Origin: a virus
Taxonomy: Duplodnaviria; Caudoviricetes
DNA: 64,000 bases
Reading direction: 5' to 3' (one strand)
IMG/VR virus record: IMGVR_UViG_3300005345_000001
Location: 1-64,000 of that record
A program made the position numbers and the translations under genes. Every line of letters starts with the position of its first letter. Within the stretch, counting starts at the first letter, position 1. Under the pieces are notes generated by a model. The model did no database searches, was not told where the DNA came from, and saw nothing but the letters and a program-made list of their open reading frames with translations. Positions 13,911 through 31,492 of this stretch are shown here, piece after piece.

Positions 13911-15440
13911 ATGCCCGATGATACCCAGGTAGTACCCGCCCAAACTACAGCAGATGCTCCACCTACTGCACCACCAACCGATTTACCGTTACCTACTCCG
14001 CCCCCTACGCCGGGCCCGGAGGATGATCCTAATCATCAGCTGGCGCTCCTAATTGCCAAGCGTAAGGAACGTAAAGCGCCCAAAGAAGAAGAGCCAGGCA
14101 AGGAGCCGCCCGGAGATAACGCCGAAGACAAGGCTAAAAAGCAGGAGAAGCTAGGGGATCTAATCGCTGATGCGCTTAAATTTAAGGGCAAGAAGCCCGA
14201 CGCCAAGAAGGAAGAACCCAAGGTAGAGCCTGAGCCTCCACCGCCCGAGCCGCCCAAAGCTCCACCGCCCGCTCCAAAGCCTGAGCCTACTGTCATCTCC
14301 AAGCGCAAGCCTACCGATCCGGATGAGCACGCTCGCGACATTGGTCAAGCGGCAGCAGCAGCAGCTACTGCTGCCGTGCAAGCGCTTCAGCCATCCTTCC
14401 AGCCACCGCCCAAGCCTGAGCCAGACCCAGGCGAAGCTCTTAAACCATCTGACCGACAGAAGTATGAGGTAGCTAAGTTCCTGGCGGCCTCCAATCCTCA
14501 TTACAAGGATGCCCCCAGGCTCATCTTAGATCAGACCCGGCGGGCCGAATCCTATGCCAGCCGCTGGGAATCGGCTAACCCAGGTAAAGCGTTTGATCCG
14601 GAAGACGAAGAGCATAACGCCTTTTACGACTCTATCGAAGAGCCCTGGAGCCCAATCGAGTTTGATGACGCTGTCGCCCGCATGCGCGAGGCCGCCATCG
14701 AGGAGAAAATCCAGAAGCGCTACGACGCAGAGTTAGCTACCATCAAGGAAGCCAATGCCCGACTTGAATTAACTGGCGAAGTAGACCGCCGCTACTCCCA
14801 GACGGCCGGCCAATTAGCCAAGGCGCTCAATGTCCACGATGTTATTTCCAGCGGGGGCATAGATAAGCTCGAAGAGCAAGACCCCATCACAGCCAAAGTC
14901 CTTATGCAGGTGCTTGGTGGTTTGCAGCCCTTGGTCGAAGCCATCGTCCAGATTGACGATCCTAAGGGCCGGATCAAGGTCGACATGCAAAACCCCGCTC
15001 ACCAACAGTGGGCTGCTGTCGTTCATGAAGGGGAAACTAGATCGATGGGTAAGCGCGATGAGCATGGCCGGCTCTTCGCCCGCCGGGCCGATTACTTGCG
15101 CATGAATCCGGCAGGTCAAGCCAGGCATTGGTTCCTTTCCACTGAACATATCTTGAAAGGAATTGTCGATGAAATCGCTCCGGCCATCACCGAACACGTG
15201 AAGAAAGAACGTGACGAACAGATCAAGATCGCTAAATCCTTGGGTTTTGTTCCGAAAACAGAAAGTCCGGATGCTAAAAATGGCGCTGCTGCTCCGCCCT
15301 CGTCGCCCCCGCCACCACCTGCTAAACCACCATCACCTACGGTAGGTGGTGGAGCTAAGATTGATGCATCCACTGGCGAGCCAAAAACAAAGGGCGCTAA
15401 ATTGACCGACGCGATAGCTGATACCCTCTGGGGACGATAG
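13911..15440 (+). CDS. Capsid scaffolding protein (probable)
   Basis: Pro/Lys/Glu-rich low-complexity ends, helical core, short conserved-looking tail (DAIADTLWGR); directly upstream of the capsid gene. Confidence 0.6.
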   Translation: MPDDTQVVPAQTTADAPPTAPPTDLPLPTPPPTPGPEDDPNHQLALLIAKRKERKAPKEEEPGKEPPGDNAEDKAKKQEKLGDLIADALKFKGKKPDAKKEEPKVEPEPPPPEPPKAPPPAPKPEPTVISKRKPTDPDEHARDIGQAAAAAATAAVQALQPSFQPPPKPEPDPGEALKPSDRQKYEVAKFLAASNPHYKDAPRLILDQTRRAESYASRWESANPGKAFDPEDEEHNAFYDSIEEPWSPIEFDDAVARMREAAIEEKIQKRYDAELATIKEANARLELTGEVDRRYSQTAGQLAKALNVHDVISSGGIDKLEEQDPITAKVLMQVLGGLQPLVEAIVQIDDPKGRIKVDMQNPAHQQWAAVVHEGETRSMGKRDEHGRLFARRADYLRMNPAGQARHWFLSTEHILKGIVDEIAPAITEHVKKERDEQIKIAKSLGFVPKTESPDAKNGAAAPPSSPPPPPAKPPSPTVGGGAKIDASTGEPKTKGAKLTDAIADTLWGR

Positions 15441-15497
15441 CTTATTCAGACGCCTTTAGTTGCTAGGTAATTAAGCCGCAGCTAGGCGCTTTGAATA

Positions 15498-17219
15498 ATG
15501 GCTATCAGCGCTAATATCTTCGAAAAATGTCTGCCGGCTATCGGCAACAACATCGCCGCCTGCGGTGCCGTAACCCTGTGCGACATCATTACCGCAGAGA
15601 GCGATGAGCTAACCAACATCTTCACCGATGGGTCCGGCCATTTCCGCGACATGCGCGCTCTGTTGGCCACCCAGTTTGAAATCAAGGCCTGCGGCGCCCG
15701 CACCAATGGACTCTACGACTTCCTGATGTCCAACAAGCGGATGATGGGCAATAAGAAGATCGTGACCCCGCTGGGCCCTGGCAACTCCGAGATAGCCCCC
15801 TTCATCCTGGCCCACCAACATTCTGTCATCAACGCGGAGTATTGGAGCTTAAAGAATCTGTTCAATAGCGGTGGCAACAACTACACCCTCCATGTTAATT
15901 CCAGGGCTTCCATCCCGCTGACGACCGAGTGGTTCGTGCCGGGCATGAACATCTATGTCAATGCCAGGTCAGCGGCCGGCACTGCCTTGCGCGGCTCATT
16001 CCTGGTCGTGGCATCCCAGGTCAGCACCTTTGGTGGAGCAGCCACCATCATGATCACGGCAACCGGCCAGAACGATACCTTGGGCTGGGTGGCTAAGTCA
16101 GCTTTCACCGGGTTCACCGGCGGCTCGCCTCTCTCGGCGGGTGTGGTGGTTCGCGGATCAGCCAATGTCCAGGACGTGGAGCGCTGGTGCTACAACCGGC
16201 CTGCCCTAAACGATCGTAAGCACGTGCCGTTCTGGTTTGAGACCGATCGTTACACCATGTGCACCGATCAGCTCTATGAGGCCTACTTCAAGCGGCTCCA
16301 ACAGGGCAACGAATACTTTAAGCTCTTCGGCGATGTCGACGCTACCCAGCGCAATAAGCAGTTGGGCGACATCTTCCAGCGGGAATGGATCAACAAATTC
16401 TTCTGGAACAAACGCATCTCCACTAACCAAACCCTCGGCAGCTATCGGTCACTGGCCGAAGTCACGACCTGGAGCAATGCCACCCAGGGCCTTTACCTTC
16501 CAGGAGAAGGTCGCTGCGTCGGTCGCAAAGCTAATGCGGTCGGAGTCTATGAGCAATTGGCAGAATGCGGGCAGGTCTTTGATTTGCAGAATCAGCAGCT
16601 CAACTTGGTCGAGCTGTTCGAAAACTTGATCTACCCAATCTGGCGCGCCCGTGGCGACCAGGGTATCCCCAACGATGTTATCGAGATCTTCACCGATTCA
16701 TTCACTGCCAGCCAGTTCCAGCGCGGTATGATCGAATACTATGACACCCGCTCAGACGGTCTGGCTCGGTTCATGATCGATACCAAGCAGGTTATGAGCG
16801 GCAAGATGGGCCAACTCGGGTTTAACTATGACGAGTATCGGCTCCAATATCCGCAGGTCACTATCCGGATCGTAACCAACAACTTCTTCGACGACTTCGC
16901 TACCGCGATGCAGTTGGAAAATGTAGGTTCCGCCGGCCGGTTCCTCTGGATCTTGGACTTTACCTCCATCTATCCGGGGATCATCACTAGCAACTCCAAG
17001 AAGCATACTACTGGAGACATCGAGAAGTTGGCGGCTATCGACCAGGACTACGCCTGCGTGATGGAGAATCCAACCCAGGAGATTAGCCTTAACTCACTCA
17101 CATGGACCGCCGTCGTAGAGTGCACCGCTACCAGTGCGATTGTTGAGAACTTCGACATTACTCGAATTCCCAAGGGTGACGCTGGCCAGAGCCCATATAC
17201 TGATTTGTATCAAGTCTAG
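15498..17219 (+). CDS. Major capsid protein (probable)
   Basis: 573 aa after the scaffold, strongly biased codon usage, followed by a strong terminator. Confidence 0.7.
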   Translation: MAISANIFEKCLPAIGNNIAACGAVTLCDIITAESDELTNIFTDGSGHFRDMRALLATQFEIKACGARTNGLYDFLMSNKRMMGNKKIVTPLGPGNSEIAPFILAHQHSVINAEYWSLKNLFNSGGNNYTLHVNSRASIPLTTEWFVPGMNIYVNARSAAGTALRGSFLVVASQVSTFGGAATIMITATGQNDTLGWVAKSAFTGFTGGSPLSAGVVVRGSANVQDVERWCYNRPALNDRKHVPFWFETDRYTMCTDQLYEAYFKRLQQGNEYFKLFGDVDATQRNKQLGDIFQREWINKFFWNKRISTNQTLGSYRSLAEVTTWSNATQGLYLPGEGRCVGRKANAVGVYEQLAECGQVFDLQNQQLNLVELFENLIYPIWRARGDQGIPNDVIEIFTDSFTASQFQRGMIEYYDTRSDGLARFMIDTKQVMSGKMGQLGFNYDEYRLQYPQVTIRIVTNNFFDDFATAMQLENVGSAGRFLWILDFTSIYPGIITSNSKKHTTGDIEKLAAIDQDYACVMENPTQEISLNSLTWTAVVECTATSAIVENFDITRIPKGDAGQSPYTDLYQV

Positions 17220-17245
17220 GTTGTCCGTTTGGGTTCATTGGGTTG

Positions 17246-17283
17246 CCCCGGGGTTGTCCTTGCAACCCCGGGGTGATTCTTTT
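17246..17283 (+). terminator. Intrinsic terminator after the capsid gene
   Basis: 11-bp stem ccccggggttg (17246-17256) / caaccccgggg (17263-17273), then tgattctttt. Confidence 0.75.
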
Positions 17284-17772
17284 ATGGGTCTAGCAATGCG
17301 CAAGTTCTATTCCAAAGAGATCCCAGAGTCACCGGTCTATGTAGCGGGCCATCCGCTGGTCTTTGATGTACTTGAAACTGAAGATGCCGCGCTCATAGCC
17401 GAATTAGATAAGTGCGTCGCCCGTGGTGTAGGTGGGGTGATGACTATTACCCAGGAACAGTTCGAGGTGGAGGTAAAAAAAAAGAGCAACGGACAATTAT
17501 CAAACGGCAGCTTGAGGCCAAAGCAGCAGAGACAAGAGTTGTCAGCAATGCAATTGGCCGGTCTGCGTGCTGTGGAGGGCGCCGGTAAAGTTAGTCAGTT
17601 TGCCAGGCCACAACAGCCCACCGCCAACCCTCACAACCGACACGGCTTACCAGTTAGCGGCAATGCGCCTGGCCCTATCCCGGCGCTGCCAGACCCAATC
17701 GAGGTTCCTACCCCGGAATCTTTCGGGCCCATCTCCAAGCCCCCGACTGCCAAGGCTAAGGATGTCCAATGA
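17284..17772 (+). CDS. Hypothetical virion-module protein containing an A9 slippery run
   Basis: ATG at 17284 just after the terminator; stop overlaps the next start (ATGA). Confidence 0.65.
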   Translation: MGLAMRKFYSKEIPESPVYVAGHPLVFDVLETEDAALIAELDKCVARGVGGVMTITQEQFEVEVKKKSNGQLSNGSLRPKQQRQELSAMQLAGLRAVEGAGKVSQFARPQQPTANPHNRHGLPVSGNAPGPIPALPDPIEVPTPESFGPISKPPTAKAKDVQ

Positions 17773-18785
17773 TCGAGTACCAACCTTTCGCGCTCTTCTT
17801 GTCCACCGTCCAACGGCTGGTGGCTCCCGAAGATTTGGGCGAGGAGTTGACTCCGTTCTTTCGCGATCAAGTCGGTAACGCCCTGGCCGATATCCAGACC
17901 CTCATCCCTTGGTTTAGGAACTTCAACGTCAATGCCTATACCAAGGAAGACGTGGAAGAGTTCTGTTCGGCTAGCATCTTCACCGGGCCGGTGGGTAAAA
18001 TTACCCAACTCTTCGCCTATACCCCAGGTCGGGAGTGCAAGAAGTACTACTACAAACGGGTCAGCACCTCTGCCTTGGATTGTTGGCTGGAGCGGCAGCG
18101 CTGTGTCCAATGCACGTTCACCCCGCCGCCGACCCATATTTATGATACTCCCTATTGCAACTACGTCATCTTGGGAGAAGTCGCCTGTAATCCCCCTTAT
18201 CTCAATGGAACCGAGGACACCTGCCGATTCACCAGTCTGGACGACGACAATCGAATATTTGCAGTTGGACCAGATTACCGCGTTTACGCTGCCCCTCGAT
18301 TCCCCTGTGGCTACAGCCTGTTCATGCAATGGCAGGGGATTCGGCGCAAATGGGAGAACATTGATCTAGTTCCAGTTGACCAACAACTGCGTGAAGCGGT
18401 GGTCAATTATGTCGAGCACAAGATTGCCCTCAAGGAGCGCAACTCAGTCTCCATGACCGAGTATTACTCGCTCTATGCGGTCAACCTGCGCATGCTCAAA
18501 TACCGCTATCACGACGAGCAAGACACTGAACTGGAGCGGGACTGCACTTCGGCCATCGAGCAGCTGATGTCAGCCTTCGCGCCGGCTTACGGACTGTATG
18601 GGGTGGGGGCCGGTCTGGGGGTTGGCGATTATATCTACAGTATCTCTGGTGGAGGCATCATCCAGGTCTATACGGGCGCGACACCACCAACTACCCCGGA
18701 TGACCCCACCCAAGCGGCTGTCTTTTATCCTACGGGCGGAGGCTCCATCCAGCAGTGGGACATTCCAAGTCAGACCTGGGTATGA
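17769..18785 (+). CDS. Head-tail adaptor / tail tubular A-like protein (probable)
   Basis: Position after the capsid gene; helical N- and C-parts around a beta core (...QLREAVVNYVEHK...); 10 Cys; Gly-rich C-terminal extension. Confidence 0.5.
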   Translation: MIEYQPFALFLSTVQRLVAPEDLGEELTPFFRDQVGNALADIQTLIPWFRNFNVNAYTKEDVEEFCSASIFTGPVGKITQLFAYTPGRECKKYYYKRVSTSALDCWLERQRCVQCTFTPPPTHIYDTPYCNYVILGEVACNPPYLNGTEDTCRFTSLDDDNRIFAVGPDYRVYAAPRFPCGYSLFMQWQGIRRKWENIDLVPVDQQLREAVVNYVEHKIALKERNSVSMTEYYSLYAVNLRMLKYRYHDEQDTELERDCTSAIEQLMSAFAPAYGLYGVGAGLGVGDYIYSISGGGIIQVYTGATPPTTPDDPTQAAVFYPTGGGSIQQWDIPSQTWV

Positions 18786-20293
18786 GAGCGCTGCTGGCCA
18801 TCCTCTTCATGTTGCTGGCGATTATGTCGCAGGCCGCCACATTCGTGTCGGACGGTTCGGACACCGATGTGCAGGCCAAGATTGATTCTGCCTCCGATGG
18901 GGACACTGTCACTATTCCGGTCGGCAACTTTGACTGGGACACCACAGTCACCATTTCTGGCAAAGGCATCCATCTGAAGGGGGTGGATGGTGGCTGGATA
19001 TCAGGCTGGAGCCGGTCCAGCGTTCTCATCGACATCGGACTCAAAACTTTCACCACTCAGACTGGGCTCAAGTGGACCGTTGGAGATGAAATTGGTGCCT
19101 ACTACGTCGCCAATGGCGCGCCCTTAAGCATGTTCGGCACCGTGGATAGCTATTCAGGTTCTACCTTGGTCATCAATGTCACCATTGCCAATGGCACTAC
19201 GACGAAAGCAGCCTGGGTCTTTGTCCATGCTGGCACTAGCTCAGTGACGTTTAACACCGGAACTTCCACTGGCTTAAGCATTACCGAAGACACCACCCAC
19301 AACGTTGAGGTAAGCCAGTTACATTTCATCGGTGGAGTGTTCCAGACCAGTGGCGCCATGATTAAGTGGAACAATACTTCCGGTGGAAAACCCATCCTGT
19401 GGCATGACAACCGCATTACTGGCACTGAGAACGACATAGCGTTGCGGGTGGAAACCAACCGTGGGGTCATCTGGAGCAATTACTGGGACAGCACTTTCTA
19501 CGGTGGCGAAGGCGACAACAACGCCGCGCCAGACTGCTCCATGATGCAGCATAAGCCGGCTAGCCTGACGACTTCCTGGACCACAGCCGACACGCTTGGC
19601 CAAAACGATACCGATGGCACTGGCAACCTCTACATCGAAGACAGCGTGTGGGTGGGGACGTCGCTGCAAAGCTTTGACGTCGATGAGATGGCCCGCACCG
19701 TTATCCGCCATTCCCTGATGGACAATAGCGGTGGGACCAGTCACGGCCGGGATACTGGCACTGGCCTGCGCCACTTCCAGTTCTATAAGAATACCACTTT
19801 GTTCGATAACCTCGGCGTGGACAGCTACCCACTGGACTACCTGTTCTTCATCCGAGGCGGTACCGGTATCGTCTGTAGCAATTCTATCGAGGACATTACC
19901 TCCGGCCAATGGGGGAACAAGACTGAGATGAAACAGCAGATCCAGGCGTTACGCCGTTCATGCGCAAACGATTGCTGTTGGAACAGTGGCTGGCCACAGC
20001 CTCAACAGATTGGCCAAAGCCATAATGGCAGTTCGATGTTCAACGACCCGCTCTATTACTGGCAAAACAGTGCCGCCATGGCCATTGCTAATGTCGATTA
20101 TGCCCCTGACGGGTGCGGTGGTGGCCCGGCCATGAGCACCTATTGTATCGAAGGCCGAGATTTCACTAATGCCACCAAGACTGGTTGGGCACCCTACACT
20201 TACCCACACACCCTGCGAGGCGCCCAAGCCCCAGAAGGGCCGGCAGTGCTCGCCCAAAAGGTAAGAGCTTTGAAAATACCACTACGAAGATGA
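18782..20293 (+). CDS. Signal-peptide-bearing protein with pectin-lyase-like beta-helix
   Basis: MRALLAILFMLLAIMSQA signal; DVQAKIDSASDGDTVTIPVG is typical of beta-helix N-caps; ATGA coupling at both ends. Confidence 0.7.
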   Translation: MRALLAILFMLLAIMSQAATFVSDGSDTDVQAKIDSASDGDTVTIPVGNFDWDTTVTISGKGIHLKGVDGGWISGWSRSSVLIDIGLKTFTTQTGLKWTVGDEIGAYYVANGAPLSMFGTVDSYSGSTLVINVTIANGTTTKAAWVFVHAGTSSVTFNTGTSTGLSITEDTTHNVEVSQLHFIGGVFQTSGAMIKWNNTSGGKPILWHDNRITGTENDIALRVETNRGVIWSNYWDSTFYGGEGDNNAAPDCSMMQHKPASLTTSWTTADTLGQNDTDGTGNLYIEDSVWVGTSLQSFDVDEMARTVIRHSLMDNSGGTSHGRDTGTGLRHFQFYKNTTLFDNLGVDSYPLDYLFFIRGGTGIVCSNSIEDITSGQWGNKTEMKQQIQALRRSCANDCCWNSGWPQPQQIGQSHNGSSMFNDPLYYWQNSAAMAIANVDYAPDGCGGGPAMSTYCIEGRDFTNATKTGWAPYTYPHTLRGAQAPEGPAVLAQKVRALKIPLRR

Positions 20294-23200
20294 GAAGATT
20301 ACTCGCAGCTGTTTGTGCGCTACTTTGTTTTGCTAGCGTGCTGTTTGGGGCCAACCCGTCCTATACATCATTCCTTGGAACCAACGGAATCATCATCACG
20401 TCCAATCCTCCACAGGGCTTTATCATCATCGACGGCAGGGCGTTGACCAATGGCTTTGTGTCAGGTGTCGGAGATCAGGTTTGGACCAATGATGTAGGGG
20501 TAATTTACACGATTGTTGACCCATCTCGAATTCAGTTCCTGACCAACAGAATTTTTGGCCGACTGATTCGGGCTGATGGGACCAACACTGTCTTTGGGAG
20601 CAATGCGTTGCCCCCTAATGTTGGAGCTGTAAATAGCGTAGCCATAGGTAGTGACGCATTGAGCCGTTCTAGTGGTGGCGAAAATGTGGCCATTGGACAT
20701 AGAGCTTTGGCTACTAATTCTAGTGGTCTAAACAACGTGGCGGTTGGGTATAGGGCAATGGAGTTCAACGATATTAGTGAGGACAATGTGGCGTTAGGAT
20801 ATTCCGCCCTTCGCGAATTCACAACTGGTCATCAGAATACGGCTCTTGGGGCAGCATCAATGGTCCATTTGACCACTTCGTATGATGGTACAGCGGTTGG
20901 ATATGGAGCCATGGATAAACTGGAGGGCATTGGAAATACTGCTCTTGGATCTAGGGCCATTAGTGGTGGTCTAGGTGGAGGCAATTACAACTTGGTCGCG
21001 GGGAATCAGGCGATGTTTAACAGCGACCGATTGGAGGGAAATGTAGCACTTGGAGGATTTGCACTCACTGGCATTGACGACCTGACAAACGTGGTTGCTA
21101 TCGGATATCAAGCCACGGCCATCTCCGGTGGATTAACCAACGCCGTTGGGATTGGGGCCCTTACTCGCATCACCGCAGACAACCAGATGATGCTTGGGAC
21201 CAACATCACCCGGTATGTGTTCAGGAATGTGGATTATACATTCCCATCGGCCAATGGGGCAGCGGGAACTGCCCTCACCAACAATGGCGCCGGCATCTTG
21301 GGTTGGGGAACCGTGGCTGGTAGCGGTGGCACGGTGGCATTTTCGGACCTGATATGGACCAACGACAATGGCACGCTCAAGCCAGTCGCTTTCCCGACCA
21401 ACGTGCTGTTACGGGTGAACGTCCCTGATAACGGAACCGGCACCAATTACTACTTCGACAGTCGGGTTTACCGGACAAATGCAACCAGCAAATTGTTCGC
21501 TATCTACAACGGCGGCAGCAACGCCGTCACGGTCGGCCCCTATGGCGGGCTGTTTATGGGTCGCGGTAATCCCACCCCATTCCCAGGCGTAGTCCTTTAC
21601 GGCATATACGATACGGCTCTTGGCGAGACCAACCAGCAGGAGATTTTTACCATGAGCCAGAATAGCGCTGTGGGCTACAACGGCGCCGCCGACCTGATCG
21701 TCGACACCAATTATGGGGCCATAATCCTGTTCGCCAATAAGGAGGGCGGAACCAAGTTTAGCCGGTTTGCCATCCAGGCTGGGGCCGGAATCAACCCACA
21801 AGATTTTAACACCTTCTCGATGCAGGCGCTGGTCGATGGGGCGACCTACTTCCAGGTGGACCCCAACTTCACACTACTTACCCCGACCAATTATTTGTTC
21901 AGCAGCAGCGTTCGTATCACCAACATCCATACCCTGCTGTCGCTCCAAAACAGCAATTTCCCGGTGCTTGAAGTGGACGGTGTGGGCGATCTAAGACTAA
22001 TCAAGAAGATCCCTTACCAGTGGCCCAGCGCCCAAGGTGCGGCCGGCACAGCTCTGACCAACAATGGTTCTGGCATTCTGGGATGGGGCGCAGTGGCTTC
22101 GGGCGGCGGTCTTACCTTTGCCGACCTTATCTGGACCAACAACACCGATACCATCTATCCCTACGTCCATAGTAACCGCATCCATTTCGGCACCTCTGCC
22201 ACCAATGGAGCCCGCCTTAATCTTGAGTGGTATGCGCCGCGTCGGTCATTTCGTGTTGGTCAGCTATCCACGGGCATTGGAAGCGATTATTGGGATGTGA
22301 CAAACCTTGGCATAGGGTCGGTGTCATTTGGTTCCAACAACCTTGCTGGTGGATATATGAGCGCAGTGTTGAGTGGGTACGGAAACATAATCCCGACCAA
22401 TTACATCTATTCTGTAATCGTTGGAGGTACTGAGAACTTATTTGCTGAATCCAGTGCAAGTGGGCGCAACATAATTGGAGGAGGCAGTAAGAACCAAATG
22501 GACCCAGGCGCAAGCAATTGCGTTATTGTAGGCGGATTTAGGAATAGGATTCTCACTGATGCGTTTATGAGTTCCATGGTTGGTGGAGCGGACAATATTT
22601 CTCGCATGCGCTATGGCTCTATTGGTGGAGGATCTGGAAACGAGACAAGGGGCATCGGTTCTGTGGTTGGAGGTGGGTTAAACAATATTTCAGGAGAGTC
22701 AACGGTGGATGGTTTAACCACGATTGGTGGTGGTAGCCAAAACAGTATACATGAGGATTATGGAACCATTGGTGGTGGTTTTGGCAATTTCCTTCAAAGT
22801 TCTGCGTTGTATGGAACTATTGGTGGTGGCCGGGGTAATGTGTCCGATGCAATCAGCGGCACCATTGCCGGAGGCTCTCTGAATAACATTGATGGCTTTG
22901 CCCAGTATGGAGTTATTTCTGGTGGCTACACTAATTTTATTGGCAACCCAGGAGCGGGTGGTTCCCACTTTAGTTTCATCCCTGGTGGTGTTTCCAACAA
23001 GATAAGTGGCGCTATAATGGCCGCAGCCATTGGATCATTTCAGACGAACACCTTAGATAAAACCATCCTGCTTGGCACCACCAACAACAACCGGGTGATG
23101 GTCTCCACGACCAATCTGAATTTGCTGGAGGACATGACCATCCTGATGACCAATGGCGCTGGAGCCGGGAAGGTGCTCACCTCTGATGCGAACGGCAAGG

Positions 23201-26200
23201 GAACCTGGGGTACTGCCAGTGCGGGCAGCGGAACCTTCACGAACATATTCAGCCCAACTCTCTCTAACGCCACTATCAAGCCGTTGGTGGTGGGGCTTGG
23301 AACGGCGGCTGGCGCGACTAATACCACTGGCGAGATTAGGGGCATTGAGGCCGGTGCAAACATCACGATCACGCCCAATGGCAGCAACTACGTCATCTCG
23401 TCCACTGCCAATTTCGTGTCCTTAAGCACAACCAATGCGACGAGCAAACCGCTGACAAACAGCTATGCGTCAGGCGTCCTGACGATGTTTGGCATTGAAC
23501 AGGGTAGTGGCCAAGCTATCACGGTTAACGCTTCCAACATTGTCGTTGGGATCGATTGGGCACAGGTGGCAAGCACCACCAATGTCGTTGGAGTGTCTAA
23601 TTGGGTGAATTCCGTGTCCAACTACGTCACGGCAGCTACCAATTCGGCCTCGGTTACCAACTGGATTACACAACGCCAACCCGCCAATGCTGTTCTTTCT
23701 AATCTGGTTGGCACGGTAGCAAAGAACGTCACTAATGTGGTCTCTCTCAGCACGACGAACGCGACAAGTAAGCCGCTCACAAATAGCTATACGTCGGGTG
23801 TGCTGACGATTTTCGGAATTGAACAGGGCAGCGGTCAGGCCATCACGATGAACGCTTCCAACATCTTAGTCGCGATAGATTGGGCGCAGACGGCAAGCAC
23901 GACTAACGTGGTGGGAGTGTCCAACTGGGTGAACTCGGTTTCCAATTATGTCACGGCTGCCACAAACAGCGCCAGCGTCACCAATTGGATCACCCAACGC
24001 CAACCCGCCAGCCAAACCCTTACCAACCTTTCTGGCACTGGCGCCATTACCAACGTGTTCAGTGCGTCGCTTAGCAACGCTACGATGAAACCGGTGGTGT
24101 TCCCGTCTGCCAACAACTTCGCCACTAATTATACGGGCAGATTCTTTGGGTTGGAGCAGGGAGCTAACGTCACTTTGACCCCAAATGGGAGCAACATCGT
24201 TATCGCTTCGTCTGGTAGCGGAGGGTCTAGCCTTACGACCAATGCGAACCAATTCGGCGCTTCGGTGGAGTTAACCATCAAAGATGCACCGTTGCTGACC
24301 AATGCGATTCATTATGGTGCTGGATTCTTGGGCTCTTTCACCAACGTCTGGACTGCGCCTCAGTTCCTGGGTACCAATGTGGTATTTGATGGTACCAATT
24401 CGTCTTGGTTCCAATTCAATCCAGCGACTGGACCACAGACCAACTACGTATTCACCAACATCCAAGCTGGCCAGACGATTGTGGTAAAAACATACGTCAC
24501 CAACGGGACCACTGTCAGGCTATGGGCCAACACGACTGAAATCCCGGCTAGTTGGTATATCGGCAACAACGGAAGTGCGGCCAACATCAACAGCAATGCG
24601 CCCTCAGTGGTTTATGTCAGCCGAGACTCTCTGGTGCCAGCCACCAACGTCTTGATCTGGACCCGAGACTTCGATGTCACAGCGGGATATGGGTTAATCT
24701 ATGCCACCAATTTCGTAGCAGGCATCGTGACCCAACAACTCCAGCAGATATTCCAACCTGGCAATGCGACACTCACCAATCTTGCTGGAACAGGAGCCGT
24801 CACCAACCTGTTTAGCCCGACTCTTTCCAACGGGACGATCAAGCCACTGGTGGTCGGTGTCGGAACGGCAGCGGGCGCTACCAACGTGACCGGAGAGATT
24901 CGCGGGCTTGAGGCTGGGGCTAACATAACCATCACTCCAAACGGAAGTAACTATGTCATCGCTTCTACAGGTGGTGGTGGGGTGGCGTTATCAGATTTGG
25001 TTTGGACCAATCGCGTCGGTGAATTGCTTCCAAACGCTTATCCAACCAACACTATCCTAAGCCCAACCAATGCGGGATTTAGGACTAATTTCTATTTTGG
25101 CAGCACCGAAACCAGAGCTGGTGGAACCAACAAAGTATTCAGGGTCTATAACGGAACAAACAACGCACTTACCGTAGGTGATGCTGGTATATTCATCGGG
25201 TCAGCTAACGGCACTCCTATCAATGGGCAAGCGATAAATGCCATTTATGACACATCTCTTGGGGATGCGCCAAGCAAGGCAATCAGCCTAACATCTCAAA
25301 ATAGCGCCGTTGGATTTAATTCATCGGCAGTCACCAGCGTTAGCACTAATTTTGCTAACACTGTATTGACCGCTGATCGAGATGGCACTGGGTTCATAAA
25401 TTTCACTCAAGTTATTGGACAAGATGCAACTTGGCTTAATTTCGATATGTATGTTCTGGCTCAGGATGCCGGAGGCACCATTATTAGACCATTCCAGTTT
25501 GACCCCGACTTCAGCCTGAGTCCGACAAGTTACCTATTTAATAGCACCATGCGGATTACCAACACGCACACTTTGATGTCGCTTCAGAATAGTAATACCC
25601 CGATGTTTGAGGTTAATGGCATCGGTGACCTGAAACTACTGAAACGCATCCCATACTCATGGCCAAATGCGCAGGGAGCGGCGCAAACGGTGTTAACCAA
25701 TGATGGGTCCGGCAATTTAGGTTGGGGCGCCGTATCAGCCAGTGGTGGGTCTGTAACATTTGCGGATATCGTATGGACCAATAAATCTGGAACCCTTTAC
25801 CCAATCGCATACCCGACCAATATAATTTTCAATCCAACTAACACTGTATCAGCCGCTGAACTAGCACGAGCAACCAATTTCCTATTTCAGACCAGCACTC
25901 GAAGGATCGGCGGAACCAATGTGCTGTTTGCGGTCTTTAACGGCGGGGCCAGCGCACTGGTCGTTGGCGATCAAGGAATAATGATTGGCTCGACCAACTA
26001 TATACCTGTCCCTCAGGCGGCAATTGATATCGCGTACGATACGGCCTTCGGGGTTGATAGTCCCGAGAAATCAGTCCTACTGACAACCTACAACAGCGTG
26101 GTTGGCTATAGCGGAAATGCCGAGATGCACGTCAGCACAAACTACGGTGATTTTAATGTGACCGCTAATAAGGAAGGCAATGGATTCGTGGAGTATTTCT

Positions 26201-27141
26201 TCAGAGCAGGAGGTGCAGGAACCGCTGTGGATTATAAGAATTTTGATGCCTATGTTCTGGTTCAGGATGAAGGAGCAACCATTATAACGCCTTACCAAAT
26301 CGATCCCGATTTCAGTCTGAGTCCTACCGGATACATCTTCGGTAGCACGATGCGCATTACCAATACCCATACGCTGATGAGCTTGCAGAATAGCAATACG
26401 CCGATGTTCGAAGTCAACGGCATTGGCGATCTGAAACTGCTCAAGCGCGTGGCTTATTCCTGGCCCAGTGCTCAGGGAGCCGCCCAAACTGTTCTTACCA
26501 ATGATGGGTCGGGCAACCTTGGGTGGGGAGCAGTAGCAGCTAGCGGTGGAGGGCTGGCCACAAACGCCAATCAATTTGGGGCCAATACTACGCTCTCGAT
26601 CAAGGAGGGCGTGCTTCTGACAAACATTATGCTCTATCCATCCAACCTGACCAGTCCAGCCTCGATTGCGACTGCCAGCGTTGGAAGTATGACTAACCTG
26701 ATAGAGTGGAGACAGACCAATGGCGCATTGGCGCTACTGATCAGCTCCAATGGTCTTTATAACATATCCGTTCCCCTTCTCCACTCCAACGCCGTTGCAT
26801 TTAGGACCAACAATATCGACTTCAAATTGGCTCAGTGGCAGACGTTTAGTAACGCACTCAAAACCAATTTGGTCCTCCAGCTAACCAACTGTAATGATGG
26901 CGTCACACATACGTTAAATGCTTTCGGTTCTGGAAGACTTGGGAATGGAACAACCAATGCATGGCAATTGCTTTGCACCGTCGCCTCTGGTAACACCATC
27001 TATTGGCCTCCAGGATCTACCAATGGAAATTTCGATGTGCTGGTTAACAGCAATCAGGTGGTTACGTTCACATTCCAGCAAGTGTTCAACACCAACATAT
27101 TCGCATCCTATCTGGTGCGAGAGGGGATAGGGGCAAACTGA
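20290..27141 (+). CDS. Giant (2283 aa) signal-peptide-bearing fibre/adhesin-like protein
   Basis: Likely start at ATG 20290 (MRRLLAAVCALLCFASVLFG); YadA-head-like NxAxG repeats, IGGG-x-N repeats, internal domain triplication; no C-terminal beta-barrel anchor. Confidence 0.8.
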   Translation: MRRLLAAVCALLCFASVLFGANPSYTSFLGTNGIIITSNPPQGFIIIDGRALTNGFVSGVGDQVWTNDVGVIYTIVDPSRIQFLTNRIFGRLIRADGTNTVFGSNALPPNVGAVNSVAIGSDALSRSSGGENVAIGHRALATNSSGLNNVAVGYRAMEFNDISEDNVALGYSALREFTTGHQNTALGAASMVHLTTSYDGTAVGYGAMDKLEGIGNTALGSRAISGGLGGGNYNLVAGNQAMFNSDRLEGNVALGGFALTGIDDLTNVVAIGYQATAISGGLTNAVGIGALTRITADNQMMLGTNITRYVFRNVDYTFPSANGAAGTALTNNGAGILGWGTVAGSGGTVAFSDLIWTNDNGTLKPVAFPTNVLLRVNVPDNGTGTNYYFDSRVYRTNATSKLFAIYNGGSNAVTVGPYGGLFMGRGNPTPFPGVVLYGIYDTALGETNQQEIFTMSQNSAVGYNGAADLIVDTNYGAIILFANKEGGTKFSRFAIQAGAGINPQDFNTFSMQALVDGATYFQVDPNFTLLTPTNYLFSSSVRITNIHTLLSLQNSNFPVLEVDGVGDLRLIKKIPYQWPSAQGAAGTALTNNGSGILGWGAVASGGGLTFADLIWTNNTDTIYPYVHSNRIHFGTSATNGARLNLEWYAPRRSFRVGQLSTGIGSDYWDVTNLGIGSVSFGSNNLAGGYMSAVLSGYGNIIPTNYIYSVIVGGTENLFAESSASGRNIIGGGSKNQMDPGASNCVIVGGFRNRILTDAFMSSMVGGADNISRMRYGSIGGGSGNETRGIGSVVGGGLNNISGESTVDGLTTIGGGSQNSIHEDYGTIGGGFGNFLQSSALYGTIGGGRGNVSDAISGTIAGGSLNNIDGFAQYGVISGGYTNFIGNPGAGGSHFSFIPGGVSNKISGAIMAAAIGSFQTNTLDKTILLGTTNNNRVMVSTTNLNLLEDMTILMTNGAGAGKVLTSDANGKGTWGTASAGSGTFTNIFSPTLSNATIKPLVVGLGTAAGATNTTGEIRGIEAGANITITPNGSNYVISSTANFVSLSTTNATSKPLTNSYASGVLTMFGIEQGSGQAITVNASNIVVGIDWAQVASTTNVVGVSNWVNSVSNYVTAATNSASVTNWITQRQPANAVLSNLVGTVAKNVTNVVSLSTTNATSKPLTNSYTSGVLTIFGIEQGSGQAITMNASNILVAIDWAQTASTTNVVGVSNWVNSVSNYVTAATNSASVTNWITQRQPASQTLTNLSGTGAITNVFSASLSNATMKPVVFPSANNFATNYTGRFFGLEQGANVTLTPNGSNIVIASSGSGGSSLTTNANQFGASVELTIKDAPLLTNAIHYGAGFLGSFTNVWTAPQFLGTNVVFDGTNSSWFQFNPATGPQTNYVFTNIQAGQTIVVKTYVTNGTTVRLWANTTEIPASWYIGNNGSAANINSNAPSVVYVSRDSLVPATNVLIWTRDFDVTAGYGLIYATNFVAGIVTQQLQQIFQPGNATLTNLAGTGAVTNLFSPTLSNGTIKPLVVGVGTAAGATNVTGEIRGLEAGANITITPNGSNYVIASTGGGGVALSDLVWTNRVGELLPNAYPTNTILSPTNAGFRTNFYFGSTETRAGGTNKVFRVYNGTNNALTVGDAGIFIGSANGTPINGQAINAIYDTSLGDAPSKAISLTSQNSAVGFNSSAVTSVSTNFANTVLTADRDGTGFINFTQVIGQDATWLNFDMYVLAQDAGGTIIRPFQFDPDFSLSPTSYLFNSTMRITNTHTLMSLQNSNTPMFEVNGIGDLKLLKRIPYSWPNAQGAAQTVLTNDGSGNLGWGAVSASGGSVTFADIVWTNKSGTLYPIAYPTNIIFNPTNTVSAAELARATNFLFQTSTRRIGGTNVLFAVFNGGASALVVGDQGIMIGSTNYIPVPQAAIDIAYDTAFGVDSPEKSVLLTTYNSVVGYSGNAEMHVSTNYGDFNVTANKEGNGFVEYFFRAGGAGTAVDYKNFDAYVLVQDEGATIITPYQIDPDFSLSPTGYIFGSTMRITNTHTLMSLQNSNTPMFEVNGIGDLKLLKRVAYSWPSAQGAAQTVLTNDGSGNLGWGAVAASGGGLATNANQFGANTTLSIKEGVLLTNIMLYPSNLTSPASIATASVGSMTNLIEWRQTNGALALLISSNGLYNISVPLLHSNAVAFRTNNIDFKLAQWQTFSNALKTNLVLQLTNCNDGVTHTLNAFGSGRLGNGTTNAWQLLCTVASGNTIYWPPGSTNGNFDVLVNSNQVVTFTFQQVFNTNIFASYLVREGIGAN
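21346..26532 (+). repeat. Three copies of a ~250-aa domain (about 21346-22092, 24994-25731, 25765-26532) inside the fibre gene
   Basis: Each runs from D(L/I)xWTN to RITNxHTLxSLQNSNxPxxEVxGxGDLxLxKxxxYxWPxAQGAAxTxLTNxGSGxLGWG. Confidence 0.85.
23416..24009 (+). repeat. Tandem pair of 90-aa repeats (23416-23685 and 23740-24009; period 324 nt)
   Basis: VSLSTTNATSKPLTNSY...TNWITQRQPA occurs twice, near-identical in protein. Confidence 0.9.
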
Positions 27142-27854
27142 TGAAGTGGCTATTATTACTCTTAAGTTGTTTGGGCTGTTGCGGCCAACAGGCTACGGTC
27201 GGCCTGTCCGTTCGTGCGCTAGGCTCATCGGCCAACACTGCCAACGATACCAGCGAAGCGACCGGCTCTTATACGCCACAGATCGGCACTGAACTGATCG
27301 CCATCGTCATCAACACGAAAGCTGCCACCCCCGACCAGCCTAACTTGGTTGGCAATGGCTTAACCTGGACGGAGCTTTTCGATACCAATTATCTAACGGA
27401 TCATCGGCTCACGATTTGGTATGCCAAGTGCGGGTCGGGAGCCTTTGCCGGTCCATTGACAGCCGATACTGGCGCCACCTCTCAGACCGGCTGGGCCTTG
27501 GCTGTGGTGGAGGTGAGCGGGGCAGTGATCACCGGGGTCAATGGCCTGACCGGATTGCGTCAAAATGTTAACGCAAACGTCTCGGCTGGCACCACCATTA
27601 CGGCGACCTTTGCTGCACTTGGCAAACGGACGCTATGCATTGGGCTAGTGGGCGGTAACCTCAACGGAACGGCGAATACTGCGGAAGCTGGCTGGACAGA
27701 GATTGTTGATGTGGCCTTCAACACCCCAGCCACAGAGCTAACCATCGTATATCAGGCAAAGAATGCCGATACGACCTGTGCGGTTTCCAATGCCGGCGCA
27801 TTCAGTGGGTGCATTGTAGGCATCGAGATGGTTCAGGTTGGTAATTTCCCATGA
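27141..27854 (+). CDS. Signal-peptide-bearing beta-rich protein
   Basis: MKWLLLLLSCLGCCG N-terminus; TGATG overlap with the fibre gene; Ala/Gly/Thr-rich beta pattern. Confidence 0.7.
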   Translation: MKWLLLLLSCLGCCGQQATVGLSVRALGSSANTANDTSEATGSYTPQIGTELIAIVINTKAATPDQPNLVGNGLTWTELFDTNYLTDHRLTIWYAKCGSGAFAGPLTADTGATSQTGWALAVVEVSGAVITGVNGLTGLRQNVNANVSAGTTITATFAALGKRTLCIGLVGGNLNGTANTAEAGWTEIVDVAFNTPATELTIVYQAKNADTTCAVSNAGAFSGCIVGIEMVQVGNFP

Positions 27855-28666
27855 GAATACTACTGGCATTACTGTTGAGTGTGGTTGCTGCCAAAGCTGA
27901 TTGGTTCGGGACTGGTAATCTAAACACCTATTTCTGCGGTCCGAACATGACCAACTCAATGAATGTGCTGAGCAACAGCATCACCATTGCCGTTTGGCTC
28001 AGAATTCGAGATACTGGTACTGGGCTGGAACAAAAGAATGTGTTCTTTTCCAAAGGCCGATTGGACTTCACTGCCAGCTGTAATTATCTGCTGCGCATTT
28101 CTGGCAGCAAATTCGAATTCGATTATACCGACCAAGTTGGTGGGCTGCACACGTATCAGTCCTCTTCGACGATTATCTGGACCAATCGCCTCCGATTCGT
28201 TGCACTTACATTCACCTACGGAACGGCTGGATCATCAATGCAAATGTATTTGGATGGCGCCCCCATCTCAGGATCGTGGACCAGTGGGAACGGAAACAGT
28301 AATAGCCTCCCAAACCAGCACGAATTTAGCCTTTCAGGACCCACGGCGCAGGTGGTTGGAGGTGGGATTTTAATGGGTGAACAAGGCCCGGTCATGGCCT
28401 GGCGCACAAATCTTAGTAGCACTCAAATTCAGATGCTTTATAAAACACGTGTAGCTGGGTTGCCTTATGTTATCTATCCACAGCATTGCGTGCTAAACAT
28501 TGATTGGAGCAATATTCGGTATGGTCAAGACATGGAGTCTAGTCAACGAATTCCGAGTCGTGTCCCTTGGGGTCAGTTCGTGTCTAACGCTATCCCACGA
28601 TTCGGTCAAAGCAGCAGCGGCAATCCGCTCGGAAGCCAGTTAATGTCATTTTGGCCAAACGAATAA
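27851..28666 (+). CDS. Signal-peptide-bearing LamG / concanavalin-A-like lectin-fold protein
   Basis: MRILLALLLSVVAAKA signal; ITIAVWLR, FFSKG, FVALTF, QMYLDG match LamG-like strands. Confidence 0.8.
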   Translation: MRILLALLLSVVAAKADWFGTGNLNTYFCGPNMTNSMNVLSNSITIAVWLRIRDTGTGLEQKNVFFSKGRLDFTASCNYLLRISGSKFEFDYTDQVGGLHTYQSSSTIIWTNRLRFVALTFTYGTAGSSMQMYLDGAPISGSWTSGNGNSNSLPNQHEFSLSGPTAQVVGGGILMGEQGPVMAWRTNLSSTQIQMLYKTRVAGLPYVIYPQHCVLNIDWSNIRYGQDMESSQRIPSRVPWGQFVSNAIPRFGQSSSGNPLGSQLMSFWPNE

Positions 28667-28676
28667 CATCATCCAA

Positions 28677-29333
28677 ATGCCATCACCCGTTTCACCCACC
28701 CAATTCTGTGACGCCGTTCCAGCGGCCAACGCCGACCTGTGCGTCAAGATGTCCAAATTCCTGGGCATCCCACAGCTGCTCTGTGATTTGTTCGGCTGGA
28801 TGCTCAATACCGACCGATCCATCAGCCAGACGTTTAAGGAGGAGGTGGCCACCTTTAGCACCCCAACGGGTATGATTGCTTACTCACTTACCCTAAATAT
28901 GGGGCCGGGCTGGATCTTGGCCGATGGCAGCGATATCTCCCGCACGACCTACGCCAATCTCTTCGCCGCCATCGGCACCCGCTACGGCGTTGGGGACGGC
29001 AGCACCACCTTCGGATTACCCGATTTACGTGGCCGCTCTCCAATTGGCGCCGGTCAAGGCACCGGATTATCCAATCGCGACATCAATACCGTCAACGTGG
29101 GCGAAGAGCGCCATACCCAAACGGAGGCCGAATTAGCCACCCATCGCCACGATTACAACACTACCGACAGCCAGCAAATCCTGGTGCAACAGGCAGTGGG
29201 AAAGATCAACGACATCAACCGAAGCGGGTCGCTTGATTATGCTTTTGCCGATCCAATGGAGACCACGGGTGACAGTGAGCCCTTCAACGTCATTCACCCA
29301 TGTATTATCGCTTATCCGTTTATCAAGATCTAA
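28677..29333 (+). CDS. Phage tail collar domain protein
   Basis: GWILADGSDISRTTYANLFAAIGTRYGVGDGSTTFGLPDLRGR, GEERHTQTEAELATH, and PCIIAYPFIK. Confidence 0.92.
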   Translation: MPSPVSPTQFCDAVPAANADLCVKMSKFLGIPQLLCDLFGWMLNTDRSISQTFKEEVATFSTPTGMIAYSLTLNMGPGWILADGSDISRTTYANLFAAIGTRYGVGDGSTTFGLPDLRGRSPIGAGQGTGLSNRDINTVNVGEERHTQTEAELATHRHDYNTTDSQQILVQQAVGKINDINRSGSLDYAFADPMETTGDSEPFNVIHPCIIAYPFIKI

Positions 29334-29344
29334 GATGACCCGCG

Positions 29345-31492
29345 ATGTCAGACTTCAAGACGATCAAGCTAAGACCCATGACGGGCGTGTTCGACACGCT
29401 CTCAAGCGCAGATGAGATTGGCTTTGGTAATTGGCGCGTAGTTAAAAACGCTGTTACCCGCTCCACTCGAAACCGTAATCGGTCTGGTGGCTGGCGTCGC
29501 CTGTTCGCTGACGACGATCCATACAACAACCAGGACCTTCACGACCAGTTAACGACCCGGCTGGGCTACTACGATTCTTTCGAAGAGCACGTCATGGGTG
29601 GTGGAGGCCTGCATGGCTACATCTACGCCTACTTCACTGGAGTCTATCAGGAGCCCACCACCTTCGCCTATCCTCCAGCATCGGGTCCATTTTCTCCGGT
29701 TTATGTCGGGGATTTCCCGGAGATGCTCTATGGCCCGTGCACAATCTTCTACCCATACGTGGGGTATCCTTATCGGTTCATCCAGCGCCCTGATTTGCCC
29801 GACAGCCTGACGACGGGCGCCCCGTTCAACTACCTGGATTCCTACGTGTACACATCCTGCCAGGTGGAGTATCCAGGGGATCTAGTTGCGGGCTACCCAT
29901 ACGGGCCGCAGACGCCCGTCTATGACCCCCTCTTTGCCTACGACCACGAGTATTGCGGAGATTATCTGTGGAGCCGGCCTGGATGCCGGGAAGCTATCAC
30001 GATGTTAACCGAAGTGGTCACCGCCCAGGGCCGCAAACTGGTGGCCGCAACCATGTCCAGAGTTTATGAATTCAATCAATCAGCAGGGAATTGGCGGATA
30101 TTGGCCGATGGACTGGGTAATTCCGGATACACGACCGAACAGTGCGGGTGCAACAGCGTTCGAGGAATGGCCGCTACCATTGGAGAATACCTTGTTTTCA
30201 CCAATAACTTCGATCCCCCATTTATCTACCAACTTGGAAGCGATTCTTCTGGCTGCGGGCTTCAGTCACTCCAACCGATCACAGACCTGGCAGTGCTTGG
30301 TATTACCCGAGCTGGCGGAGTGGTTACCTGGAAGGGATTCGTAATCTTCTTCGACATCACCGAAGCCGGCGTGCGCAGCGGCAGTACGATTATTTGGAGT
30401 GATCTGGAGGATCCCAATTCATTCATCGAAAGTGATACCAGTTTTGCCGGCCGGGCCACCACAGCGGTTGGAGAGACTATCCTGGCTGCCGCGCCCATCG
30501 GAAACTGGCTCATCCTTTACACCGATAAATCAATCATCCGGGTGTCCCTGGTCGGTGGGGAAGACGTGTTTAACTTCGAGGAGATTTATCGGGGTGGCAA
30601 CGCTCTGCGCTACAAGTATTCCCTGGTAAACGCTGGCGACGCCCACATTTATATGGGCGAGAGTGACATTTACATGTTCACTCAGTTCGATACCCGGCCG
30701 ATTAACGTGGAGTGGATCACTAGGGCCGCCGGCTTTGTCTATAACGGAATAGCTGAGGACGACGCCACCTATCAACGCATCAACAACGATGCCTGCAATC
30801 TGGTCACAGGCGGTTGGAACGAGAACACCCGCGAAGCATTCTTCTCTTGGCCAACCGGAGACAACATCTGTCCGGACGTCACGTTACGGCTTAACCTCAA
30901 ATTCAGCGCCGCTGACTTCATCGACCACGGCTTCACGGCTTTCTTGACCTTCCACCGGGACCAGCGGCCCACGGTGGGTGAATGGATGGAGACCCTGGGC
31001 ATCTGTCCACGTGGAAGCAAGGTGGCCACCGGCATCAAGGACGGGCCCGTGTGCCCAGATCCTAATCGGATAATAGAGCAGCCTGCGGATCCGGATGCGG
31101 AGCCCGAACCCGAGCCAGAGCCAGAGCCAGAAGACTGCGGGACGGATTGTTCCCAGATGCCCGTAACGCTTTACGCCCGGGATCTGATGCCAATGTATCA
31201 GGCGGGGCCGGAAGCGCTCGGTTGCCCAGCCTGGGACGGATCACTGGTGAATGCCGGAAGCCCTCCGTGCCAGTGGTTGAATTGGTGTTCTGGCCCAGTC
31301 GGTTTTGGTGGCATTGGTGTCATACTGTCAGGCGCGCCGGGTAACTGGTGGATCAGCATCTATCGAGGGGCCTCATTCGCTTCGTATCAGCTTACGCCAC
31401 AGGCCAATTGTCCGTATGGCACCTATAATTTGGCGGTTTCAACCTGGATAGACGGGCCTGCGGCTAGCTCAGTAGAAGTGACGATCGTTTGA
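29345..31492 (+). CDS. Tail nozzle / packaged-DNA stabilisation protein (P22 gp10 or T7 gp12-like), N-terminal piece
   Basis: Beta-propeller-like repeats (VFTNNFDPP, IIWSDLEDPNSF, LILYTDKSI), position before the ejection genes; ends with a PE linker and an extra domain. Confidence 0.65.
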   Translation: MSDFKTIKLRPMTGVFDTLSSADEIGFGNWRVVKNAVTRSTRNRNRSGGWRRLFADDDPYNNQDLHDQLTTRLGYYDSFEEHVMGGGGLHGYIYAYFTGVYQEPTTFAYPPASGPFSPVYVGDFPEMLYGPCTIFYPYVGYPYRFIQRPDLPDSLTTGAPFNYLDSYVYTSCQVEYPGDLVAGYPYGPQTPVYDPLFAYDHEYCGDYLWSRPGCREAITMLTEVVTAQGRKLVAATMSRVYEFNQSAGNWRILADGLGNSGYTTEQCGCNSVRGMAATIGEYLVFTNNFDPPFIYQLGSDSSGCGLQSLQPITDLAVLGITRAGGVVTWKGFVIFFDITEAGVRSGSTIIWSDLEDPNSFIESDTSFAGRATTAVGETILAAAPIGNWLILYTDKSIIRVSLVGGEDVFNFEEIYRGGNALRYKYSLVNAGDAHIYMGESDIYMFTQFDTRPINVEWITRAAGFVYNGIAEDDATYQRINNDACNLVTGGWNENTREAFFSWPTGDNICPDVTLRLNLKFSAADFIDHGFTAFLTFHRDQRPTVGEWMETLGICPRGSKVATGIKDGPVCPDPNRIIEQPADPDAEPEPEPEPEPEDCGTDCSQMPVTLYARDLMPMYQAGPEALGCPAWDGSLVNAGSPPCQWLNWCSGPVGFGGIGVILSGAPGNWWISIYRGASFASYQLTPQANCPYGTYNLAVSTWIDGPAASSVEVTIV

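Follow-up and report, generated by a model that had tools for sequence, protein, structure and literature searches.

Why should four consecutive genes among the virion genes of a tailed phage each begin with a signal peptide? The question arises in the window, by which is meant the first 64 kb (positions 1 to 64,000) of the virus record IMGVR_UViG_3300005345_000001, a single contig of 80,506 bp. Between a putative head-to-tail adaptor gene and a tail collar gene of this phage lie four genes, here termed the cassette (lengths in amino acids, aa; positions in nucleotides, nt; a vertical line marks a predicted cleavage site; AF2 is AlphaFold2):

18782-20293, plus strand: P0001, 503 aa; signal peptide at aa 1-18 (nt 18782-18835), then one right-handed parallel beta-helix that makes up the whole mature protein (AF2 model and homologues)
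20290-27141, plus strand: P0002, 2283 aa; signal peptide at aa 1-20, the module ANPSYTSFLGTNGIIITSNPPQGFIIIDGRALTNG at aa 21-55 (nt 20350-20454), then a mosaic giant fibre (homologue comparison)
27141-27854, plus strand: P0003, 237 aa; signal peptide (or possibly a weak lipobox), then a double beta-sandwich domain
27851-28666, plus strand: P0004, 271 aa; signal peptide (cleavage AKA|DW), then a LamG/concanavalin-like lectin domain

Sec export of all four products is well supported by their sequences, and the gene arrangements of related contigs establish that the cassette is accessory and mobile. The favoured explanation, to which a probability of about 0.4 is given, is that a temperate, podovirus-like soil phage carries a mobile accessory cassette of Sec-exported, receptor-binding-type proteins, and that its fibres join the particle after lysis. 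This retains much of what the initial annotation of the locus had proposed, namely the signals, the receptor-binding-type folds (beta-helix and LamG), the place in the virion operon and, as far as the sequence goes, export; the YadA-like heads that it also proposed were not confirmed, and the fibre slot is not a fixed one.

Export signals of the cassette proteins

The genes are translationally coupled, as had been claimed, the overlaps reading ATGA at 18782-18785, ATGA at 20290-20293, TGATG at 27139-27143 and ATGA at 27851-27854. Each opens with a Sec-type signal peptide whose N-terminus matches that quoted originally. Signals were called by a rule-based check together with conservation across homologues. 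All four N-termini carry Lys or Arg at positions 2-3, followed by an uncharged, Leu-rich h-region of 12-18 residues with a mean Kyte-Doolittle value of ~3.0-3.6. The predicted sites, which were placed by small residues at -3/-1, are SQA|A (P0001), LFG|A (P0002), CCG|Q (P0003) and AKA|D (P0004); those of P0001 and P0004 are canonical, that of P0002 has Leu at -3 and that of P0003 lies in an unusual c-region.

The signals are kept in related phages while their sequence drifts. Signal-like N-termini were found in 89 of the 104 P0001 homologues by a rule-based scan, in 11 of the 12 proteins of the P0002 N-module family by eye (the twelfth, P0109, has an internal transmembrane segment) and in 11 of the 12 LamG family proteins (the twelfth is truncated). 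Between orthologues the signal region is ~50% identical and the whole protein 91% identical; the signal also changes length, and the mature protein is 64-92% identical. A drifting signal ahead of a conserved mature part would be the usual behaviour of true signal peptides. In the P0001 family, alignability begins exactly after the predicted site (...A|ATI.A.SC...VQ.AI..A..GDTV.IP), and two signal-less homologues, P0031 and P0028, the latter encoded on another phage contig, start exactly at the predicted mature N-terminus.

These observations bear on two other accounts of the N-termini. That they are a gene-calling or chance artefact is so improbable as to be refuted for practical purposes by the conservation data. 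A lax rule-based scan does flag 16 of 100 open reading frames (ORFs) of the genome, and for P0001 and P0002 the longest ORF begins further upstream than the assigned start, at GTG 18755 and TTG 20185, respectively. However, homologues of the cassette proteins begin at the same Met codons, so these longer ORFs do not represent real starts; the upstream extensions are not conserved, and the feature recurs in dozens of independent contigs. The second account, which is unlikely, holds that the hydrophobic N-termini stay uncleaved, either tethering the fibres to the inner membrane as signal anchors or forming helices with a structural or oligomerisation role, with assembly at the membrane or in the cytoplasm. 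It could draw on P0109 and on the upstream giants of contigs L001 and L002, in which a ~70-residue cytoplasmic coiled-coil precedes the hydrophobic segment, and on the Leu at -3 of P0002 and the CCG of P0003, which do not make ideal signal peptidase I sites. Against it, the h-regions are short as well as Leu-rich, two of the four sites are canonical, and in every family conservation sets in exactly behind the predicted site, the hydrophobic part being variable in both sequence and length. The start points of P0028 and P0031 argue in the same direction, as does the N-terminal helix in both AF2 models, which lies at the chain start with low confidence ahead of a high-confidence domain.

P0001, a secreted-type beta-helix protein

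The beta-helix fold attributed to the cassette is borne out by P0001. Its AF2 model (predicted local distance difference test, pLDDT, 86.6; predicted template modelling score, pTM, 0.88) is a single right-handed beta-helix over residues 18-489. Structural matches over residues 17-490, at Z 20-24, comprise RbmB (24.1), alginate lyase/epimerase, polygalacturonases and the catalytic domains of tailspikes; VexL (Z 20.0), WceF (18.9) and AlgG (18.8) match as well, and Foldseek E values reach down to 7e-8. The modelled protein is polysaccharide depolymerase-like. P0001 has no Pfam or PHROG match, its score against TIGR03805 (19.8 bits) is below the cut-off of 141.5, and PF13229 is recorded on only some of its homologues. 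The bacterial homologues come mostly from metagenome-assembled genomes (MAGs) of Verrucomicrobiota (Chthoniobacteraceae, 39%; Udaeobacter) and Acidobacteriota, and most of them bear a signal.

P0002, a giant fibre with a conserved N-module

Beyond its N-module, P0002 is rich in Gly, Thr and Asn. Its N-module family consists of 12 proteins of 263-1693 aa, ten of which show a signal, then ANPSYEAFLGTNGIIITSNPPQG.IIDGR, and then diverge. P0110 and P0113 bear signals and do not have the ANPSYEAFLGTNGIIITSNPPQG.IIDGR module, and P0109 has a cytoplasmic coiled-coil followed by the transmembrane segment. The N-terminal coiled-coil of ~70 residues before a hydrophobic segment in the giants P0109, L001:5130-10004 and L002:5241-9953, which belong to the second phage lineage described below, corresponds to a type II membrane topology and not to a cleaved signal.

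P0002 belongs to no family of the PHROG, Pfam, NCBIfam or PADLOC libraries, and searched whole at E<=0.01 it has no Pfam match, S74 included. The YadA-like heads suggested earlier could not be upheld, since five segments of P0002 gave no Pfam match at E<=1 and the sole PDB sequence match was UspA1 at E=0.26. No C-terminal autotransporter barrel was seen in P0002. An enrichment of N-x-S/T sequons was considered and rejected, 46 being observed against 43.5 expected from the Asn/Ser/Thr composition.

P0003, a putative fibre partner, and P0004, a LamG protein

P0003 is modelled by AF2 as a double beta-sandwich (pLDDT 93.9). It belongs to a large, unnamed family (807 matches), members of which occur with or without signals and also inside RHS-toxin, type IX secretion system (T9SS)-sorted and LamG-containing proteins; no PHROG, Pfam, NCBIfam or PADLOC family was assigned. 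The best PDB match, the head of the Tuc2009 receptor-binding protein, was set aside at Z 7.3, below a meaningful level, which leaves no clear solved relative. As to a lipobox, LLSC at residues 7-10 comes too early and CLGC at 10-13 would put the Cys at -3. The N-terminus of the homologue in contig L099 reads LSCLSCVA|QEA, and signal peptidase I cleavage after residue 15 is compatible with both sequences.

The same contig links P0003 to the fibre. The last 161 aa of the L099 giant fibre are 75% identical to the end of P0002, and the P0003 homologue (83%) directly follows. In sequence terms, this co-inheritance of P0003 with the P0002 C-terminus resembles that of a fibre tip with its partner protein.

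The LamG fold of P0004 was assigned correctly at the outset: PF13385 scores 32 bits against a gathering cut-off of 27.6 (E=1.7e-7). The LamG family contains 12 proteins, all of ~270 aa and organised as a signal followed by AKA|DW..G, and PF13385 is recorded on 10 of the 12. Pattern scans of IMG/VR for P0003 and the LamG protein gave no new context, and PHROG, Pfam, NCBIfam and PADLOC lend no support to known defence or exclusion families for P0001-P0003.

A variable slot and a mobile cassette

About 20 sibling contigs with capsid, putative adaptor, collar and nozzle genes were compared. In about five of them (L007, L110, L113, L101/L102, L115) the adaptor-collar junction holds an ordinary signal-less fibre gene of 350-500 aa, so the junction can be regarded as a variable fibre slot. 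In L100 the slot contains, ATGA-coupled to the adaptor, a gene for a fibre of 735 aa that bears both a signal and the ANPSY module, and then a signal-bearing LamG gene. The description of the locus as the tail-fibre slot of the virion operon therefore holds for its place in the operon and for the kind of gene it receives; the slot is not fixed, being empty in seven siblings. Since it is variably occupied, and since similar cassettes also sit in a glycan cluster and by an integrase, the cassette proteins are accessory and mobile.

The same signal-peptide families occur in a second lineage with unrelated capsid genes (L001, L002, L014, L015, L099, L122, L128), directly after the head genes and interleaved with signal-less fibres. 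P0001 is 91-92% identical to its second-lineage counterparts, which points to recent exchange between the lineages. The mode of evolution is tail fibre-like, with a conserved N-module, mosaic shafts and a fibre tip that is inherited together with P0003. The recurring signal-bearing sets come from soil and groundwater metagenomes. In L015 (20498-23517) the signal-peptide cassette continues with an outer-membrane protein (OMP) beta-barrel (PF13505, 173 aa) and an 830-aa S8 subtilisin-like protease.

Other mobile or variable spots were noted. Several siblings have insertions of ~0.6 kb inside or just before the nozzle gene, where the window has none (L005:4888-5576, L008:9251-9894, L009:11937-12604, L011:10654-11319, L010:1200-1803), making this a second variable spot of the tail module. 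Four small minus-strand ORFs of the window (34780-35304, 36644-37147, 47170-47745, 48860-49414) have HNH/homing-endonuclease-like N-termini, with the motifs YDPETG..CHWKERPR and GCW. The last of these sits exactly where L096 has a signal-peptide cassette, and in L129 an HNH-like gene adjoins a protein with the candidate docking module described next.

A candidate docking module

Two features immediately upstream of P0001 are relevant to the fate of the fibre:

17769-18785, plus strand: putative head-to-tail adaptor, 338 aa, named from its position alone; its stop overlaps the P0001 start (ATGA)
18630-18782, plus strand: C-terminal extension of the adaptor with a ~40-aa module, QVYtG..PP..PDDPT..A.fYP.GGGS.QQWD.....W[VIL]

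The putative adaptor has no Pfam, PHROG, NCBIfam or PDB match and is kept at 56-82% in the ~20 sibling contigs. The extension with its module is present on the adaptors of the window phage, L100, L011, L103 and L106 and absent from at least ten others, those of L005, L007, L008, L009, L101, L107, L110, L113, L115 and L116. Second-lineage phages have the module too, as the C-terminal half of proteins of 86-89 aa that are encoded beside signal-peptide fibre genes, and in several of these genomes the small module proteins end <=10 nt upstream of a signal-peptide 'ANPxY' gene. Overall, the module is found fused to three N-terminal parts: the adaptor, a KITQLP fibre-type N-terminus (MADKKITQLP...) and a small Cys-rich MACDPN domain. 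Of 16 IMG/VR records that contain the module, 13 encode the fibre N-module as well; every one of the 6 records with >=99% completeness is among them, and the three without it are fragments. These associations hint that the adaptor module is a candidate docking site for the exported fibres, and would suit a portable connector by which such fibres are held on the particle.

Small Cys-rich 'MACDPN...LLC' domains are repeated among the post-capsid genes of the second lineage (L122:9839-10099 and 13265-13501; L128:9318-10120; L001:4020-4268 and 4762-5157), and some are fused to fn3-like parts or to the docking module.

Destination of the exported proteins

On the favoured explanation, the four proteins would be exported, processed and folded in the periplasm, and particles built in the cytoplasm would meet them when holin and lysis merge the two compartments. 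Holin lesions connect cytoplasm and periplasm before the envelope bursts, which makes docking after lysis physically plausible. The mature N-terminal module of the fibre would then dock on the ~40-residue module at the adaptor C-terminus or, in the other lineage, on the same module displayed by small virion-binding proteins. The particle would thereby gain an additional, optional group of appendages next to its core collar fibre. Since P0001 lacks an anchoring domain, it probably either works on host glycan as an unattached enzyme or is carried by the fibre.

A number of observations weigh against such a role in the virion. The cytoplasm is where tailed-phage fibres normally assemble, and a literature search of partial coverage found none described with a Sec signal peptide, so that their absence is only weakly indicated. 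The slot has no occupant in L005, L008, L009, L010, L011, L114 and L117; the virion can therefore do without the cassette. Of all siblings L011 is the closest (80-94% aa identity), and its slot junction reads simply TAA-GCT-ATG. Related genes also lie away from tail genes: L096 has a signal-bearing beta-helix, fibre and LamG set between the radical SAM and lipoprotein genes of a glycan cluster, and in L003 the integrase region adjoins genes for a fibre-N-like protein, a P0001-like protein and one more protein with a signal. P0001 consists of a signal and a beta-helix only, like its chromosomal secreted homologues, one of which lies inside a Wzx/Wzy/glycosyltransferase cluster on a 2.87-Mb contig of an Acidobacteriaceae MAG. 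With the helix starting at about residue 18, there is no particle-binding or anchor domain before it, and the matched tailspikes align to P0001 only from tailspike residues 185-562 onward. Finally, shared ancestry is a confounder of the association between module and cassette. Within the lineage, and leaving out the L096 and L003 adaptors from the counts, a cassette occupies the slot in 2 of 4 extension-bearing adaptors with a readable slot against 0 of ~13 without the extension, a marginal difference, and L011 has the module yet no cassette in the 44 kb examined.

Several of these points would be expected if the proteins were exported but never became part of a virion, acting instead as cargo directed at the envelope of the cell that is infected or lysogenised, or at neighbouring cells. 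This is possible, if short of probable, and the alternative offered in the initial annotation, late secreted adhesins or decoys, survives in the form of secreted adhesins or enzymes about as likely as proteins that join the particle. The beta-helix enzyme would trim host exopolysaccharide or capsule, either within the periplasm or outside it; glycans would be bound by the LamG and beta-sandwich proteins; and the fibre would be shed or be shown on the cell surface through its N-module, in the manner of the mosaic adhesive trimer (MAT) fibres of Bdellovibrio. Possible benefits are that receptors are destroyed or masked, that progeny are released, that other phages are excluded or that lysogens adhere. 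Signals are the rule in all three families (P0001, fibre N-module and LamG), and the bacterial P0001 homologues mostly carry them too. The exported glycan-locus beta-helix enzymes WceF, RbmB, VexL and AlgG are all among the structural matches of P0001, and the plan of a signal, a conserved N-domain and a phage-like fibre is shared by MAT fibres on a cell surface (PMC10769870). The glycan-cluster setting of the chromosomal homologue, the L096 cassette ahead of a lipoprotein gene, the L003 genes by the integrase, the empty slots and the OMP barrel and protease that follow in L015 fit the same account. However, in the window phage, in L100 and in the second lineage the genes are translationally coupled to virion genes and lack a promoter of their own, and it is hard to see what use display would be on a cell close to lysis. 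All contigs on which the fibre N-module family was found are phage-sized (<=56 kb), and none of those with the LamG family exceeds 81 kb. Nor does this account explain the fibre-type evolution or the adjacent docking-like module carried by virion proteins, and no cell-anchoring signal (barrel, lipobox or a sorting motif such as PEP-CTERM) was seen.

Operon setting and host

The surrounding genes place the cassette within the late region of the phage:

8928-10466, minus strand: T4-type large terminase
17240-17279, plus strand: seemingly perfect stem-loop of 18 bp followed by a T-run (TTTTAT), directly 3' of the major capsid gene
28677-29333, plus strand: signal-less collar-domain fibre protein, 218 aa (PF07484; T4 gp12-type matches)
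29345-31492, plus strand: nozzle-like tail protein (phrog_3287; PDB 8zkk gp16 nozzle, E=6e-4)

The plus strand carries a large capsid-region operon, and the record also encodes a 2901-aa protein, a glycan-enzyme cluster and an integrase. The hairpin at 17240-17279 is likely to be an attenuator or partial terminator ahead of the adaptor, cassette and tail genes, and probably tunes how strongly capsid genes are expressed relative to tail genes. Elsewhere in 13000-32000 nothing conspicuous resembles a promoter or terminator that would separate the cassette from the late genes, so that the cassette is probably read through with them. The PF07484 and T4 gp12-type matches agree with the tail collar gene expected downstream of the cassette. 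This protein is kept in all siblings and is a candidate for the core receptor-binding protein of the virion.

The host is probably a diderm of the Verrucomicrobiota or Acidobacteriota, as judged only from the closest bacterial homologues of P0001 given above. A search of GTDB genomes with the capsid protein found no prophage or host, and GenBank phages gave no match to the DNA, the terminase or P0001. Bacterial loci with P0001 homologues have no other product in common with the phage except generic sugar and methyl-transfer enzymes. Small ORFs with a lipobox (LVSC, LIGC) or Sec signal occur in the window at 6548-6913 (plus), 48485-48856 (minus) and 61593-61934 (plus), and elsewhere in the genome at 64091-64441 (minus) and 64659-64889 (minus); they suggest a diderm host and further envelope-targeted phage proteins. 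The lipoprotein at 48485-48856 is kept (57%) directly after the cassette in L096.

Implications

Host-range prediction, receptor-binding protein engineering and annotation pipelines assume that tail fibres and tailspikes are assembled in the cytoplasm. Signal-bearing sets of fibre-, depolymerase- and lectin-type proteins nevertheless recur in at least two unrelated phage lineages and are exchanged at up to 92% identity. If the fibres do join the virion, this would be a new assembly route, with the adaptor C-terminal module and the ANPSY N-module as docking pair. If they do not, phages of Verrucomicrobiota- or Acidobacteriota-type hosts would carry a large secreted fibre and enzyme cargo in their late operons, which would be a novel form of envelope remodelling by phages. 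In both cases the P0001 family, with a member in a chromosomal glycan locus too, is a pool of uncharacterised exported glycan-active enzymes.

Comparison with known systems

Several tailed-phage proteins are known to use the Sec or Lol signals of the host, among them SAR (signal-arrest-release) and Sec endolysins, spanins and T5 Llp-type lipoproteins. This phage resembles their producers in also having small lipobox or signal ORFs, such as 6548-6913 and 48485-48856. However, those known proteins are small and serve lysis or exclusion, whereas the cassette proteins are of fibre, tailspike and lectin type, range from 237 to 2283 aa and are encoded in the virion operon. A parallel is offered by the inovirus coat proteins pIII and pVIII, which have cleaved Sec signals and are added to the particle outside the cytoplasm; in contrast to these filamentous phages, which extrude through the envelope, the window phage is tailed and packages by terminase.

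The MAT fibres of Bdellovibrio bacteriovorus, whose N-domain has been proposed to be a surface anchor (PMC10769870), are similar in architecture only: a signal is followed at once by a conserved N-domain and a tail-fibre-like shaft whose distal parts vary and whose tips can be exchanged (PMC10769870). They are chromosomal, act on the predator's own cell, have an N-domain of ~130 aa and in 13 of 21 cases carry an S74 chaperone-protease (PMC10769870), whereas the cassette genes are phage-borne among virion genes and their conserved module is ~35 aa. P0001 in turn shares with WceF, RbmB, VexL and AlgG the combination of an export signal and a single right-handed beta-helix, and differs from these exopolysaccharide-locus enzymes in being phage-encoded and coupled to virion genes. 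WceF of Pantoea is a Tat-exported, tailspike-like trimer (PMC7949094), and the glycan-locus setting of the chromosomal P0001 homologue is the same arrangement as that of WceF (PMC7949094).

Classical tailspikes and fibres, such as P22 gp9, CBA120 TSP1-4 and the Klebsiella and Acinetobacter depolymerases, have no signal peptide, assemble in the cytoplasm and place an N-terminal particle-binding domain before the helix, where P0001 has its helix from the start of the mature protein. Even so, the cassette shares with them a beta-helix catalytic fold, a variable slot near the tail genes and mosaic exchange, and the inheritance of a fibre tip together with its downstream gene recalls the fibre/partner pairs of the T4 gp37/gp38 type.

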